IMG/VR virus record: IMGVR_UViG_3300009285_002085
Length of the DNA stretch: 40,691 nt
Direction: 5' to 3' (one strand)
Source: a virus
Shown here: positions 1,262 through 34,244 of the stretch, piece by piece
Layout of the letters: each line of letters begins with the position of its first letter
Numbering within the stretch: position 1 is the stretch's first letter
Notes under the pieces: generated by a model
Database searches by the model: none
What the model was told of the DNA's origin: nothing
Seen by the model: the letters and a program-made list of their open reading frames with translations, nothing else
Position numbers and translations under genes: made by a program

Positions 1262-3631
1262 TTATGTCCATTGCGGGTTTTTCCCGTGCGAAAACTCAAG
1301 GATATGATCAGCCATTGCCCGACAACTTTCCTTGTGGCTGATGTAACAAAGCTGAGATAGTCCGGCTTCCGCCATAAACGGCCTGTAAAGCGCCGTAAAC
1401 TTCTCCGCATTGTCAGCGTCAAGTGCCCCGTCCGCCTCGTCTCCACAATAGTAATCGAACTTCTTTCCGCCCTTCTCTTGATTCAGCAGAGACATGGCCA
1501 ACGTAATTGCCTGCACGCACCACACCCGCTGCCCGCCGCTGATGTCATCAAGGAATATTTCGTTGCCGTTCTCCATGATGATTTTGATGCTCATATCCTC
1601 GCGGCCCTTTTCGTCCTGATCCTGGAGGCGCACGGAATAGAGGGCATTGAAAGCCTGAGATAAAAGCCGGTTGGCATTATGGACGATCATTGGCGCTGCC
1701 GCGCCCATCCGCAGATTCTGCAACCCATTCTTCCCGCAGGAGTTTTGCAAATATCTCCACGAGGATACGTTTCTGACAAGCAGCTCCCTCTGGTGCATGA
1801 CCTCCACTAGCTCCGTTTCCGCTTCCGCAATCCGGGCCAGTTCGGCTTCGAGGGCGGCTATTTTGTTCCGGGCGGCCTGGATTTCGGTTTCGAGGGCGGG
1901 GAGCTTGCTGGTTTCAATTTCCCTGATATCCCACTGAACCCCCTGGAGCTTTGTTTCGGCCCCCGCAAATTCAAGGAGCTGGCCGTCAATTACCATTCTA
2001 TCGTCGCAGAGTTCATTGATCCGTGTATGGTAGACGTTTTCTTTTGCAACCCACAAATTCTTTTTGTCGGTTCCTTGTTCCGTCACTTCTGCAAGTTGCT
2101 TTTCGAGGTCGGCCTTTCTGATCTCAGCGAACCGGACATCCGGCAGCCGATCCGCGAGGGCTTTCTGCGCGGCTATCTCCTGCCTGATTGAAGTCAGTTT
2201 TTCCCGGTGCATGGTCAAGAGTTCGGTCGTGTTGATTAAAATTTGCCGGGCGTTCCCAAGGTCGTTGGTGGCGGTCTTTATTTGCTCGTCGAGGGCAAAT
2301 TTCGCAGTAACAATGGACTTTTTGCGTGCCGCAAGGGTTCCCTCGATGTCTCTCTTCTGAAATTCCAATTCCGGTATCTCTTTTTCGGCCTGCAATGCCG
2401 CCACGATGAAGGAACAGGTGGTCGATGCGCAATCCTCCGCCCTGTCCGCGAGGGGTTTTGACAGGTCGAATTTGTTCCCGAGCTGCCCCGTGATTCGGTG
2501 CAATTCCCTGTCAAGGGTGGCAATTTCACGGTCGTTCTCCAAATCCTTCACCTGCTGCCGGAGTTCCGCAAGGTCGGTTTCGAGGTCGTGGCCCCTCTTC
2601 TGATAAACCGGGACGTTCTGATTCTCCTCTTCGATCTGCGCTACCAATCCGGCAAGAGAGGATTCGAGTTCCCGCACATTGTCCGCTGCCTTCTCGATGG
2701 ATTCTTTCAGGGGCGCCGGGAAAAACTGCTTGTCGATATCCAGCTTGATTTCCCGATACTTCACGGCCAGGGCGCTGATCTCCTTTTCCACCGTCTCTTT
2801 CTCCTCCACCAGTTCCGCTTCCACTCTCTCAATCTGTGCCTGTAAATCCTTCCGGCGTTCGAGGGCGACGGCGTTCTGCTGGATGGTGGCTTTCAGGGCA
2901 TCGATGGTGGTGCGTTTATCGATGATTGCCTGCTTAAAAATAGAAAGCTCGTCGGTCTTTATCGAAAGGTGGTTTTGGGCAAGAGCAACATCAACCTTCT
3001 TTTCCTCCTTGACAGAGATGTTCTCCTGCAGCACCGTAATCCGCGCGTCCAACTGACCAGCTTTCCCCTGGTAGATGTTTGCTGCCTGTTTCGCGGTATC
3101 CTCATAGACAGAGTACTTTTGCAGGTTCAAAAATTCTCGAAGTAATTCACGGAAGACGCCGACCGTGAGATTTTCTAACTGCATGTCCTTGGTCGCCTTA
3201 CTTTTTTGAGGGCAGAACTGGCTCCTGAAATAAACGAACGGCTGTCCAAAGATTTCGTTGACCGCTTCTTTGTACTGCGTGATTTTTCCATTGCAAGTAG
3301 GCTTCCCGTTAACCCACAAGTAGCCCTCCTGTTTCTGTTGCTCACAATCCATTTTTATGAGGCTTCTGTAGCTGTTCCCCATAAAATCACATTCAAACTC
3401 TTTCTCAGCGTCACGGCCTACGAAGTGGCTCCATAATGCACCCGACCTCGATACAAGCTGTGGGTACATGTGCAGGTTTTCAAGGACGGAACTTTTTCCC
3501 GAACCATTTTCTCCATCGAAGCCGATCAGCCCAGTTTTGCCCGTAAAGTCAATTTCGATCTCGGGGATGCCATCCCACGTTAATTTCGGGCCAGCAAGTA
3601 GGCCCTTCGCTCCTTTCAATCTCAGCTTCAT
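1262..3631 (-). CDS. SbcC/Rad50/SMC-like ATPase (recombination nuclease ATPase subunit, T4 gp46-like)
   Basis: Walker A GENGSGKSS near the N-terminus, a long central coiled coil, signature-like ISGGQR and Walker B YYCGDEADGALD near the C-terminus. The start overlaps the SbcD-like stop. Confidence 0.85.
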   Translation of the reverse strand: MKLRLKGAKGLLAGPKLTWDGIPEIEIDFTGKTGLIGFDGENGSGKSSVLENLHMYPQLVSRSGALWSHFVGRDAEKEFECDFMGNSYRSLIKMDCEQQKQEGYLWVNGKPTCNGKITQYKEAVNEIFGQPFVYFRSQFCPQKSKATKDMQLENLTVGVFRELLREFLNLQKYSVYEDTAKQAANIYQGKAGQLDARITVLQENISVKEEKKVDVALAQNHLSIKTDELSIFKQAIIDKRTTIDALKATIQQNAVALERRKDLQAQIERVEAELVEEKETVEKEISALAVKYREIKLDIDKQFFPAPLKESIEKAADNVRELESSLAGLVAQIEEENQNVPVYQKRGHDLETDLAELRQQVKDLENDREIATLDRELHRITGQLGNKFDLSKPLADRAEDCASTTCSFIVAALQAEKEIPELEFQKRDIEGTLAARKKSIVTAKFALDEQIKTATNDLGNARQILINTTELLTMHREKLTSIRQEIAAQKALADRLPDVRFAEIRKADLEKQLAEVTEQGTDKKNLWVAKENVYHTRINELCDDRMVIDGQLLEFAGAETKLQGVQWDIREIETSKLPALETEIQAARNKIAALEAELARIAEAETELVEVMHQRELLVRNVSSWRYLQNSCGKNGLQNLRMGAAAPMIVHNANRLLSQAFNALYSVRLQDQDEKGREDMSIKIIMENGNEIFLDDISGGQRVWCVQAITLAMSLLNQEKGGKKFDYYCGDEADGALDADNAEKFTALYRPFMAEAGLSQLCYISHKESCRAMADHILEFSHGKNPQWT

Positions 3632-31802: not shown

Positions 31803-32245
31803 CAGCGTACCTCCATCATCAACTGAACTCCACTTTTCCGGAAGCCCATGTCTTCATAGAATTTGGCCACATACTCATTATCGATTCCCGCTGTGACTCC
31901 AACCAGGATAACCCTCACCCCCCGAGCTTTTGCCCATCGGATGTAATCGGTCACCATTCTGATTGCCGCAATGCCCCGGTTGTCGGGCTTGAGATACAAA
32001 ACGTAGTCAGCCGCGATCAACTCATCCGAAAACGCGGGTTGATAAACCGACCCGCCCATCACACCGACAATCTCGCCGTCGACGACGTAGACCACTGCAT
32101 AGCCATTTGCCATTGCGTCCCGGCAGGTCTCAGCGACCCGGCGAGGAGAATACAACAGCTCCCGGTAATTCGGGCTCTCGCTATGCATCTCGCGCAGGAG
32201 ATCGACCACGGCGGGGATATCGGCTTCTGTCATGTGTCTAAGCAT
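31802..32245 (-). CDS. GNAT-family N-acetyltransferase (copy 1)
   Basis: IVGVMGG...LYLKPDNRGIAAIRMVTDYIRWAK...FYEDMGF. ATG at 32245 has GGAG 8 nt upstream. The 180-aa longest ORF was rejected. Confidence 0.75.
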   Translation of the reverse strand: MLRHMTEADIPAVVDLLREMHSESPNYRELLYSPRRVAETCRDAMANGYAVVYVVDGEIVGVMGGSVYQPAFSDELIAADYVLYLKPDNRGIAAIRMVTDYIRWAKARGVRVILVGVTAGIDNEYVAKFYEDMGFRKSGVQLMMEVR

Positions 32246-33719
32246 CGAACGGGCTCCATTCTGCAGCTTCAGTGATGTTCTTCTGCTGACCACGCGTTCC
32301 GGCCTTTTTGTCCACCGGATAGGCAAAGGACAATGCCAGTGCATCGGCCCGGTTTGGTGAGGGAACTCTCCGCTTCTTCATGTCCTTCTTTGATTCGATT
32401 TGAATTTTACCATCCAAACGCGGAACCGTCTCAGGCCCGATTAGGTCATCATGAAGGACGTTATCCTCCGGGATTGCCCCACCTTCCTTCAGCCAGTCGC
32501 GCATCAGCTTCCACATTTCGGCGCGTTTGTTGATACACCCATTATCGGTCGATTTTTCTGCAAACCAGACGAGCCGCCAGTGGTTACGCTTCAAAACCTT
32601 CCCAGCGCTAACAATCCCCGTTCCATAGCCGGCATCAATAAAAACAGCGTCCGCCCCCTGTTCGTCCTCCAGGTTCGCAAGGAGCGTTGCGATGGTGATG
32701 TCATTGTCGTTTTTGGCTATTGTGCGGAGGATCTTGAAAACGAGCCCTTGCCGGAGGCCGATAACTAATTCGTCGTCGCCTTCCCAGGCGGGATCACAGG
32801 TCAGAATCTTCGGCGCGAACATATACTGTTCCGGCCTGATCGATTTTCCAAAAGCCTTATCCACGTCCTCCAGAGAAATGAACTGTTTTACCGACAGGGA
32901 GGGGAACATCCCGCGAACACGAACCTTGACAAAATCGCTATCAACACCATAGTCGTCAATCCATTCCTGGATTTTAGCTTTATTGGCTATCATGCAGGAA
33001 CGGGAATCTATCTGCCGGGTAATCCAACGATGACGGAATCGGCCAAAACATTCCTTAAATCGACCAGTGTTCCGCGTGGGATTACCGAAGGCCCCCCAAA
33101 TGATTTCAGTTTCGCTGTCCAGCATGGCGCCCTCAGCCACCTCCCAGATAACATCGGGAATGGATGACGCCTCATCGAACAGTAATAGTACCCGCTTCCC
33201 CTCGTTGTGCAGCCCGGCAAACGCCTCAGTGTTTGTTTCCGACCAAGGGACTGCATCTGTGCGCCAGGTCTTTTCGTGATCCTTGGCGACAGAAAATATC
33301 GCTGTGGCTGTCACCGTGAACCAATGGCGATTAATGGCTAAGCGGTGCCATTTTGCGAGTTCTGGCCATGTCTTTGTCCGTAGCTGGGATTCGGTATTTG
33401 CTGTTACTACGCCACGGGTATCCTCCCTGGTACTCATCGCCCACAGTATTAACCAGGCTACCAACGCTGACTTGCCGATATCGTGTCCCGAGGCGGTCGC
33501 GATCTGGATCGCCTGTTGTAGAGAAATTAACCCGGCGCCTATGTCGTTCAAAACATCAATTTGCCAGCTGTCGGGGCCTTGGTGATTTTTTAGCTCACCA
33601 CTCCCCCAAGGGAAGGCATACAGAACATACCCGAGTGGATTCTTGGAGAATCCAGCAATGTCCTCGATTAACTCTAACTCTGGGTCAATCCTTTGTGCGT
33701 TCCCTTGATGCACGCTCAC
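32238..33719 (-). CDS. terL: terminase large subunit
   Basis: Walker A-like ATASGHDIGKS, Walker B VLLLFDEAS, and a C-terminal nuclease-like region with conserved acidic residues. It is preceded by a small-subunit-sized gene. GTG start. Confidence 0.9.
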   Translation of the reverse strand: MSVHQGNAQRIDPELELIEDIAGFSKNPLGYVLYAFPWGSGELKNHQGPDSWQIDVLNDIGAGLISLQQAIQIATASGHDIGKSALVAWLILWAMSTREDTRGVVTANTESQLRTKTWPELAKWHRLAINRHWFTVTATAIFSVAKDHEKTWRTDAVPWSETNTEAFAGLHNEGKRVLLLFDEASSIPDVIWEVAEGAMLDSETEIIWGAFGNPTRNTGRFKECFGRFRHRWITRQIDSRSCMIANKAKIQEWIDDYGVDSDFVKVRVRGMFPSLSVKQFISLEDVDKAFGKSIRPEQYMFAPKILTCDPAWEGDDELVIGLRQGLVFKILRTIAKNDNDITIATLLANLEDEQGADAVFIDAGYGTGIVSAGKVLKRNHWRLVWFAEKSTDNGCINKRAEMWKLMRDWLKEGGAIPEDNVLHDDLIGPETVPRLDGKIQIESKKDMKKRRVPSPNRADALALSFAYPVDKKAGTRGQQKNITEAAEWSPFDA

Positions 33720-34110
33720 GAGCCTCTTTTAATTTATCGTAAAGATTGAGATTCCCTGATAACTCAAGTTTTTCAGTGGGATACGCATTGTCCAACTTCT
33801 GAGCATCCATCCGGGCTCGCTGCCTTGTTCCCCAGTCCACCTCATCCCAAGTGACCACCGATTCCCCGTCCGAATAGTCGCGAGCCCCGTCAGCCATGCT
33901 GACGATAACACCCGTGACAGCCATCACCTTCACTCCCCGCGGCAGTGCGCTGTTGGAGATTGCGCCTTTCACCTTCAGGGTCTTTGAGACTTTGGCTTTC
34001 GATTCTGCTTTGAGCTGCCTAGCCCAGTACAGTGGGGTTAGGCCCAGAGATTCCCGGGCCGCGATGTGGGGATGGAGTAAATCTTGGATTAATTGCTCAC
34101 CTGTTGGCAT
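33685..34110 (-). CDS. terS: terminase small subunit (by position)
   Basis: 141 aa. It overlaps terL by 35 nt and has a helical N-terminus and a basic C-terminal tail. No motif-level proof. Confidence 0.55.
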   Translation of the reverse strand: MPTGEQLIQDLLHPHIAARESLGLTPLYWARQLKAESKAKVSKTLKVKGAISNSALPRGVKVMAVTGVIVSMADGARDYSDGESVVTWDEVDWGTRQRARMDAQKLDNAYPTEKLELSGNLNLYDKLKEARERASRERTKD

Positions 34111-34130
34111 AAATTCCCCCGTTTGGGGGA

Positions 34131-34159
34131 AGGCTACTGAAAACTGAAAATTCTGTCAA
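34131..34159 (-). promoter_or_regulatory. candidate late promoter: -35 TTGACA at 34159..34154, 17-nt spacer, weak -10 TAGCCT at 34136..34131
   Basis: Read on the reverse complement. It lies 3 nt downstream of the iteron array and upstream of terS. Confidence 0.4.
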
Positions 34160-34162
34160 ACT

Positions 34163-34224
34163 GACGCTACAGAGGTGACGCTACAGAGGTGACGCTACAG
34201 AGGTGACGCTACAGAGGTGACGTG
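34163..34224. repeat. iteron array: 14-bp unit GACGCTACAGAGGT x4 plus a partial fifth copy (GACGTG)
   Basis: Four perfect head-to-tail copies at 34163, 34177, 34191 and 34205, in an intergenic position. Confidence 0.95.
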
Positions 34225-34244
34225 AAAAAATATTTTAACTATTT

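Follow-up and report, generated by a model that had tools for sequence, protein, structure and literature searches.

A GTCAC repeat array at the early/late border of an uncultured phage genome and the candidate activator encoded beside it

What does a perfect tandem repeat do directly in front of the packaging genes of a phage? The question is raised by virus record IMGVR_UViG_3300009285_002085, in which an array of 14-bp units abuts a promoter-like sequence. The whole stretch of 40,691 nucleotides, here called the window, is a circularly assembled phage genome of 40,621 bp with 70 identical bases at both ends and an arbitrary breakpoint. We propose, with a probability of roughly 0.6, that the array consists of sites for a new small late-gene activator, the 74-amino-acid (74-aa) protein encoded next to it, at the promoter of the late operon; binding, activation and the start site are predictions from comparative analysis. 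An earlier reading of this locus (the sequence-only reading) had suggested an array of activator sites at a late promoter, with the adjacent helix-turn-helix (HTH) protein as ligand. Support for this proposal comes from the fixed register of array and promoter, from linkage between array and protein gene, and from their co-occurrence in metagenome-assembled genomes (MAGs) of bacteria.

The array and the promoter it abuts

Coordinates are window positions, and the array, its flanking genes and the promoter are all read on the minus strand. The central elements are the following.

34245..34469, minus strand: open reading frame of the 74-aa winged-helix protein, last gene of the early/replication block and candidate source of the array ligand
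34225..34247, minus strand: A/T tract TAAAAATAGTTAAAATATTTTTT at the promoter-distal edge of the array
34161..34224, minus strand: array, comprising a partial CAC, four perfect units GTCACCTCTGTAGC (34221..34166) and a promoter-proximal partial GTCAG (34165..34161)
34154..34159, minus strand: -35 hexamer TTGACA, 1 nt after the last core
34131..34136, minus strand: -10 hexamer TAGCCT, separated from the -35 by a 17-nt spacer

Tandem Repeats Finder reported a period of 14 with 4.4 copies, 100% matches and a score of 122 at 34162-34222. Together with direct reading, this bears out the original description of four perfect 14-bp repeats and a partial fifth. The exact 14-mer GTCACCTCTGTAGC has the array as its single site in the window. 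When up to three mismatches were allowed, just two matches lay outside the array, which is chance level. The spaced pattern GTCAC-N7-9-GTCAC occurred three times in the window, always within the array (expected 0.09). In minus-strand order, the stop codon of the 74-aa gene is followed by the 23-nt A/T tract, the array, a single T, TTGACA, 17 nt, TAGCCT, an inverted repeat and the ATG at 34110. The gap between a small HTH gene and terS, where the array had been placed, is indeed bounded by genes at 34469..34245 and 34110..33685, and the array lies at the exact border of early/replication genes and late genes. Its reported end 3 nt before TTGACA is correct in the register then used and equals a 1-nt gap when the units are read by their GTCAC cores. 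A simple promoter scanner that needs at least 4/6 matches per hexamer did not list the window promoter, since TAGCCT scores 3/6.

The AlphaFold model of the 74-aa protein (predicted local distance difference test, pLDDT, 90) contains three helices, a beta-hairpin wing and a C-terminal helix. A fold search returned generic winged-helix matches only. No family of Pfam, PHROG or NCBIfam matched the protein; a profile search yielded a weak match to an Lrp/AsnC-type HTH (E=0.018), and relaxing the Pfam threshold to E=10 brought up nothing beyond weak AsnC-type or HTH_24 matches. The earlier label 'HTH' is thus upheld by a confident winged-helix fold, but not by a family assignment. A tblastn search against cultured phages found nothing, and a search of genome contigs with the 74-aa profile found no relative. 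Homologues of the 74-aa protein and of the 141-aa protein encoded downstream of the array are rare and came from metagenomes only.

Conservation of the cassette in phage loci and bacterial genomes

Fifteen further metagenomic loci, each with a 74-aa homologue and an array, were collected from contigs encoding homologues of the 141-aa or 74-aa protein and by pattern and profile scans; the window makes 16. The identity of the protein at the small terminase (TerS) position falls to 43% among them. The 74-aa gene is directly upstream of the array in 15 loci. In the 16 loci the arrays hold 3-6 head-to-tail units (mode 5, partial units counted), in which a GTCAC core is followed by pyrimidines. The period is 12, 13 or 14 bp across loci and is mixed within single arrays in L031 and L033. 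The last core begins exactly 6 nt before the -35 in 13/16 loci, and 19-20 nt before it, about one period further, in L015, L016 and L021. TTGACA is the -35 of 13/16 phage loci (TTGCAA in two, TTGATA in one). A -10 of the TAnnnT type follows at 16-18 nt in 15/16, L020 having none. The variants are TAGCCT, retained in five diverged loci despite differing spacers, TATAAT in four, and then TATCCT, TACAAT, TATTTA/T and CATACT. Unit tails and promoter spacers differ widely among the 16 loci, and the sigma-70-type hexamer pair is kept across the diverging spacer in 15/16 phage loci and in all the MAG copies shown. Since tails and spacers diverge while core, junction and hexamers are kept, the latter appear to be under selection, which argues for a real promoter with position-locked upstream sites. 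A AAAATATTTTTT-like tract (AAAATATTTTT-like) touches the first unit in all phage loci when these are aligned on the -35, and the A/T tract stays at the array edge even where the 74-aa gene is displaced (L021, L030).

The number of units varies between close relatives. Near-identical genomes have two full units (L003-L006, from k=141 assemblies whose contigs run through the array) or four (window, L012) and are otherwise without difference, which indicates that unit number is polymorphic and that the array expands and contracts in natural populations. Many short contigs end within the array. As these stem from small-k assembly (k=31) combined with copy-number variation, the breaks are not evidence for DNA ends.

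The array is linked to the winged-helix gene and the promoter, rather than to packaging or replication genes. In L027 the winged-helix homologue, the array and TTGACA are kept before a 169-aa HTH_7-like protein and a large terminase (TerL) of phrog_38, and the 169-aa protein is non-homologous to the 141-aa family of the window (hhalign probability 0.2%). In L016 the cassette is paired with a Terminase_3 TerL. Counting all loci, the genes that come first behind the cassette are of at least four unrelated kinds, and TerL belongs to three families. The replication genes beside the winged-helix gene vary as well, with no fewer than four types (Lin1244_N/DUF4373, phrog_16167, DnaD-like phrog_2514, DnaB-like). 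Because packaging and replication genes are swapped while the cassette stays, neither a TerS-specific site nor initiator-specific iterons explain the distribution. In L030 (1134-1355) a FitA-like ribbon-helix-helix gene on the opposite strand lies between the winged-helix gene and the array, which remains with the promoter; this gene looks like a moron-like insertion at the early/late border.

The sequence-only reading had also called for a comparison of HTH and repeat covariation among relatives. The core is changed only in L015 and L016 (GGCAC or GACAC) and in L017 (mixed), and residue 25 of the winged-helix protein changes only there, alongside the core. This is suggestive, but represents about two independent events and is not decisive. 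TerS also has lineage-specific changes in L015-L017, which weakens the covariation.

A genome collection was scanned with the pattern GTCAC-N7-9-GTCAC-N7-9-GTCACTTTGACA, which was found in 16 places and in three viral contigs. Nearly all of the 16 places were in MAGs labelled Syntrophorhabdales, Syntrophaceae or 'uncultured delta proteobacterium', with 2 to about 10 arrays per MAG and ~0 matches to a reversed control pattern. The MAG copies consist of a TGCTTTTT tract, 4-6 units of 13 bp (GTCACCCCTGGTT or ...CTCCTT) and the junction GTCAC-T-TTGACA; an (A)TGCTTTTT tract touches the first unit in all of them. TTGACA is present in all MAG copies that carry the searched junction, followed at 17-18 nt by a weak -10 of the form xAxxxT (e.g. 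TAAGCT, CATACT, GATACT, CAAACT, GAAAAT). The genes behind these arrays are diverse. They include a phrog_2538-type small terminase (L051), a 111-aa protein (no assignment) followed by TerL (phrog_2) and portal (phrog_156) in L046 and L056, and endolysin/M23-like and transglycosylase-like genes (L044 and the divergent second arrays of L074 and L076). A PHP-ATPase (L052; by sequence inspection only) and a phrog_38705 protein (L049) also follow an array, and in viral contig L055 the array is directly before TerL. With target genes this broad, recognition for packaging is insufficient as an explanation; a late/lysis promoter set fits.

No close relative of the 74-aa protein was found near the MAG arrays by tblastn. 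A first search of the MAGs with the alignment of the 74-aa family (A3) gave weak matches only, none with an array within 1.5 kb, and a later profile-profile comparison showed true remote homologues. Each array-bearing MAG, apart from an arrays-only case, encodes one ~90-aa protein, as does L055 (alignment A5). In hhalign, A5 aligns with A3 over 60 columns, taking in HTH, wing and last helix, at a probability of 94.2% (E=1.1e-7). The proteins of the two alignments are only about 20% identical, and the predicted recognition helix, xR(A/T)(C/A)(M/I)R(R/H)(K/R), is their best-conserved stretch. Among 96 genomes of the order, 10 had the protein and 13-bp arrays, one the protein only, one arrays only (a 3-Mb MAG, possibly incomplete) and 84 neither. 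The co-occurrence is significant by Fisher's test both order-wide (p=1e-11) and in the closest 22 genomes (3.5e-4), by a statistic that ignores phylogeny. In the MAGs the gene for the ~90-aa protein adjoins a gene for an HTH_31 + Peptidase_S24 (CI/LexA-type) repressor. The order in L055 is repressor (opposite strand), Zn-ribbon, winged-helix gene, ~500 nt, array-TTGACA, TerL and portal.

Some arrays are arranged in unusual ways. L074 (about 2313-2392 and 3005-3072) and L076 carry two complete, divergent cassettes ~650 nt apart, one before the 111-aa gene/TerL/portal and the other before a transglycosylase-like or M23-like gene. In genomes G002 and G004 (loci L064-L072, L079) the array is part of a multicopy non-coding element of ~470 nt, with ~9 copies in one MAG. 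The element reaches from ~75 nt upstream to ~390 nt downstream of the -35, between unrelated flanks. The transcribed part behind array and promoter is conserved and contains a boxA-like CGCTCTTTGACAA, GATTCGC repeats, a poly-C run and two copies of GTGCACTTTCG. These elements gave no Rfam match and contain no tRNA.

Downstream stem and flanking genes

The features between the promoter and the large terminase gene are:

34114..34131, minus strand: inverted repeat TTCCCCC-AAAC-GGGGGAA, which includes the ribosome-binding site (direct reading)
33685..34110, minus strand: gene for the 141-aa protein, in the terS position and first gene of the late operon, overlapping the TerL start
32238..33719, minus strand: gene for the large terminase (phrog_2, E=8e-32)

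A stem of other sequence occupies the same place as the inverted repeat in L002 (TAATCCC...GGGATTA) and in several other loci; L015, L016 and L021 have no stem over the ribosome-binding site. The 5' arm of the window stem falls within the discriminator/+1 region. With a start ~7 nt past the -10, the C-rich arm would lie outside the mRNA. The stem may act at the DNA level, or it may be transcribed incompletely.

Towards the array, the early genes run in the order helicase, RusA, replisome organiser of the Lin1244_N/DUF4373 type, Zn-ribbon protein (63 aa), 48-aa protein and 74-aa protein. Behind the array follow the 141-aa protein, TerL, a GNAT protein, portal, major head protein, tail proteins and tail fibre. 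The 141-aa protein belongs to a rare family, of which seven proteins were found. It had no match in Pfam, PHROG or NCBIfam, a PDB profile search was also empty, and its poor model (pLDDT 67) gave no meaningful match in a fold search. The name terS, used for this gene in the sequence-only reading, is thus backed by the position before TerL, but not by family or fold. Uetakevirus-like coliphages and Microcystis/Nostoc phages have TerL proteins with 53-56% identity to that of the window. The Uetakevirus and Microcystis-phage relatives have a different TerS and, in their annotation, no comparable intergenic array. A DNA search of cultured phages gave a single match, 71 nt of TerL.

Within the replisome-organiser gene, window positions 35294-35373 hold (TCTTTA)x6.3, encoding a (DK)n linker, and 2.6 copies of TCCCGAGCAAC. 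GC skew was monotonic and uninformative on the origin, and an Rfam search of the window region returned sub-threshold noise only. Two related contigs also deserve mention. In L014 (208-1689) a gene for a DDE transposase is directly upstream of a TerS homologue (48% identical), at the place expected for the winged-helix gene and array, and the contig then ends. L034 (117-547) encodes two tandem winged-helix paralogues of 70 and 72 aa in a non-phage-late context with no GTCAC array; they are followed by a consensus-like promoter and a hairpin.

A putative late-gene switch, its rivals and known systems

If the array is indeed a set of activator sites, then array, distal A/T tract and TTGACA-17-TAGCCT would form the control region of a late operon that extends from the terS-position gene and TerL to portal, head and tail. 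The 74-aa protein, made as the last gene of the early/replication block, would bind one 9-bp site, GTCAC(Y)(Y)(Y), per 12-14 bp. About one monomer per unit would be bound, head to tail; its recognition helix would contact GTCAC, and its wing the pyrimidine tail. Because a period of 12-14 bp is not one helical turn, adjacent proteins would spiral around the DNA. As protein accumulates, it would occupy the array as far as the unit in contact with the -35, where it could recruit or stabilise the sigma-70 holoenzyme and thereby switch on packaging and structural genes. The promoter to be helped in this way combines a perfect -35 with a weak -10 and a C-rich discriminator, and its transcription start is predicted near 34124.

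A wider interpretation is held more tentatively, at somewhat below even odds. The array may be one case of an undescribed clade-wide circuit in which a CI/LexA-type repressor stands over a minimal winged-helix activator of 74-95 aa. With the same reserve, this activator may read 12-14-bp GTCAC arrays in fixed register with TTGACA promoters. In Syntrophorhabdales-type bacteria it could possibly serve up to ~10 scattered loci (prophage-like packaging/portal operons, lysis enzymes, defence-like ATPases, the ~470-nt element). It is likewise conceivable, and no more than that degree of belief is claimed, that free phages carry a private version which times their late genes.

Several observations weigh against late-gene activation by the 74-aa protein. 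The weak -10 from which activator dependence had been deduced is present in the window (TAGCCT), but four relatives have the consensus pair TTGACA/TATAAT and would be expected to need no activator. Classic activator-dependent promoters usually have a poor -35, and that of the window is perfect. Between the 74-aa gene and the array of the window there is no terminator, so early transcription may read through to terS. L027 (TTGACAAGCTTTTCATGTCACCTCTACAAT) has an extra GTCACCTC, an 8-nt match to the unit core, between -35 and -10. This is a repressor-like position, found at this locus only, and could be an autoregulatory or repressive site. The distant winged-helix homologues of L034 and L035 are without an array and away from terS. 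Conversely, G005 has 13-bp GTCAC arrays with the winged-helix homologue undetected, in a genome that may be incomplete. Six more genomes without a detected homologue carry 12-bp units of the GTCACC...GGAA type (G025, G035, G062, G063, G071) or 14-bp units (G089); these arrays may pair with still more divergent binding proteins. The disregard of phylogeny in the co-occurrence statistic belongs on the same side.

A first rival takes the array for a promoter element that is recognised by a host factor, or directly by RNA polymerase, with another role for the 74-aa protein. We regard this as unlikely, but it is the strongest of the rivals. MAG arrays are found at many chromosomal sites, megabases from any winged-helix gene, and arrays of 12, 13 and 14 bp exist without a detected homologue. 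Moreover, core and GTCAC-T-TTGACA junction are identical although the A3 and A5 proteins share only ~20% identity. A host factor would, however, not predict the strong co-occurrence of array and winged-helix protein over the 96 genomes, nor the winged-helix gene as the immediate neighbour of the array in phage loci. It also leaves aside that the recognition helix is the best-conserved part between the protein groups, matching the unchanged core, and that the core changes only in L015-L017, the sole loci with a change at residue 25. Less probable still, and in our view improbable, is that the 74-aa protein binds the array to repress the promoter or turn it down, or acts in both directions, with for example the proximal site occluding the -35. 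That site does overlap the edge of a perfect -35, and the consensus promoters of four relatives and the extra core within the L027 spacer would suit a repressor. However, a repressor made from the last early gene would silence the late genes just when they are required, and the sites lie ahead of the core promoter rather than within it. Weak -10 hexamers are in the majority (TAGCCT, CATACT, GAAAAT, CAAACT; none in L020). The MAG and L055 gene under a CI/LexA-type repressor occupies the place of an activator in a de-repression cascade.

Binding by packaging or replication proteins had been put forward only as alternatives in the sequence-only reading, and the comparative evidence argues against both. 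A packaging site (pac or cosB-like) bound by the small terminase seems very improbable to us. The array is immediately upstream of the terS-position gene, as is cosB in lambda, and the many contig breaks inside it could be taken for DNA ends; k=31 assembly and copy-number variation would, however, produce such breaks, and contigs assembled at k=141 cross the array. The same array precedes at least four unrelated first genes (A4 family, HTH_7-like protein of L027, phrog_2538 TerS, 111-aa protein), TerL directly in L055, and lysis-type and other non-packaging genes. A packaging site would also hardly occur up to ~10 times in one bacterial genome in fixed register with a -35. We give equally little credence to origin iterons with an A/T-rich unwinding element, bound by the replisome organiser or the winged-helix protein. 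Direct repeats do lie beside an A/T tract with replication genes close by, and N-terminal domains of phage replication initiators came up as weak fold matches of the winged-helix model (E 0.03-0.06). The initiator families vary among loci, however, while the core is constant; the A/T tract is only ~15-25 bp; and many copies per chromosome, always in register with a promoter, are not what an origin predicts. The 11-bp repeats at 35345-35373 in the organiser gene are a better candidate and the more conventional place for a phage origin. We therefore retain the array as the probable target of the 74-aa activator.

Late-gene control is poorly known beyond a few model phages, and for phages of uncultured anaerobes there is essentially nothing. 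If the proposal is true, a 74-aa protein and a cassette of roughly 100 bp would make a compact, portable switch. GTCAC arrays abutting TTGACA would then be a metagenome signature for late promoters, one that ties such phages to Syntrophorhabdales-type genomes with the same cassette. The array would be dropped as a pac or origin candidate in the annotation of such genomes. A second, independent phage-type cascade over many chromosomal loci would stand beside PrtR/PrtN.

Known systems resemble the array in part. PhoB (at pho boxes), OmpR and AfsR bind as winged-helix monomers head-to-tail on direct repeats that reach the -35 and contact RNA polymerase. Their repeats have a period of 10-11 bp and replace a poor -35, whereas the period here is 12-14 bp and variable and the -35 is consensus. 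In addition, response-regulator and SARP activators have extra domains, while the 74-aa protein is without a receiver or other domain. The R-sites of lambda cosB are short direct repeats next to terS, and origin iterons lie beside an A/T-rich tract and replication genes. Unlike these, the array is independent of the identity of TerS or initiator, in register with a promoter, and multicopy in related chromosomes.

The closest parallel is offered by late transcriptional regulators (Ltr) of Gram-positive phages. The sites bound by RinA, LtrC and ArpU are sets of 2-4 direct repeats, placed just beyond the regulator's own gene and ahead of the terS promoter (PMC3753634). The repeats are cognate-specific and required to fire the late operon from packaging to lysis (PMC3753634, PMC3152322). 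Likewise, the regulator gene in the window ends the replication module immediately upstream of the terS-position gene, and the repeats are distal to it. Ltr proteins, however, are ~130 aa and belong to sequence-detectable families (RinA, ArpU, LtrC, sigma-70-region-4-like), whereas the window protein has 74 aa and no family match. Their repeats are 7 nt long, with a terminator-containing spacer to the promoter; here units of 12-14 bp continue without a break as far as the -35, and there is no terminator. In contrast to the Gram-positive hosts of Ltr phages, the host clade here is an uncultured anaerobic lineage, apparently of Desulfobacterota type.

The chromosomal version is reminiscent of PrtN, the pyocin activator of Pseudomonas. 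PrtN binds the P-box, in which a repeat of 10-11 nt occurs four times in tandem, and PrtN is in turn controlled by the RecA-cleavable repressor PrtR (PMC4905994, PMC4684702). PrtN and the MAG version share a small activator and tandem repeats upstream of several scattered phage-derived operons. As with PrtR/PrtN, the winged-helix gene of MAGs and L055 is beside a CI/LexA-type repressor gene, with 2-10 arrays per MAG; the window has a single array, unlike the scattered target sets of P-boxes and MAGs. The P-box consensus, ATTGnn(n)GTnn(n), is unrelated to GTCAC(Y)3 or to GTCAC + 7-9 nt with a 12-14 bp period. The P-box is placed 60-100 bp ahead of the ribosome-binding site and, in the source, is not described as abutting a -35, as the array does here. 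In the Pfam scan extended to E=10 the 74-aa protein had no match to the PrtN family, and the ~90-aa MAG proteins had no relevant match. The combination of a late activator gene, tandem repeats and a terS promoter is thus already known as a type of system. What is added here is a new protein family, a GTCAC array of contiguous 12-14-bp units locked in position to the -35, a new host clade and a multi-promoter form on chromosomes.

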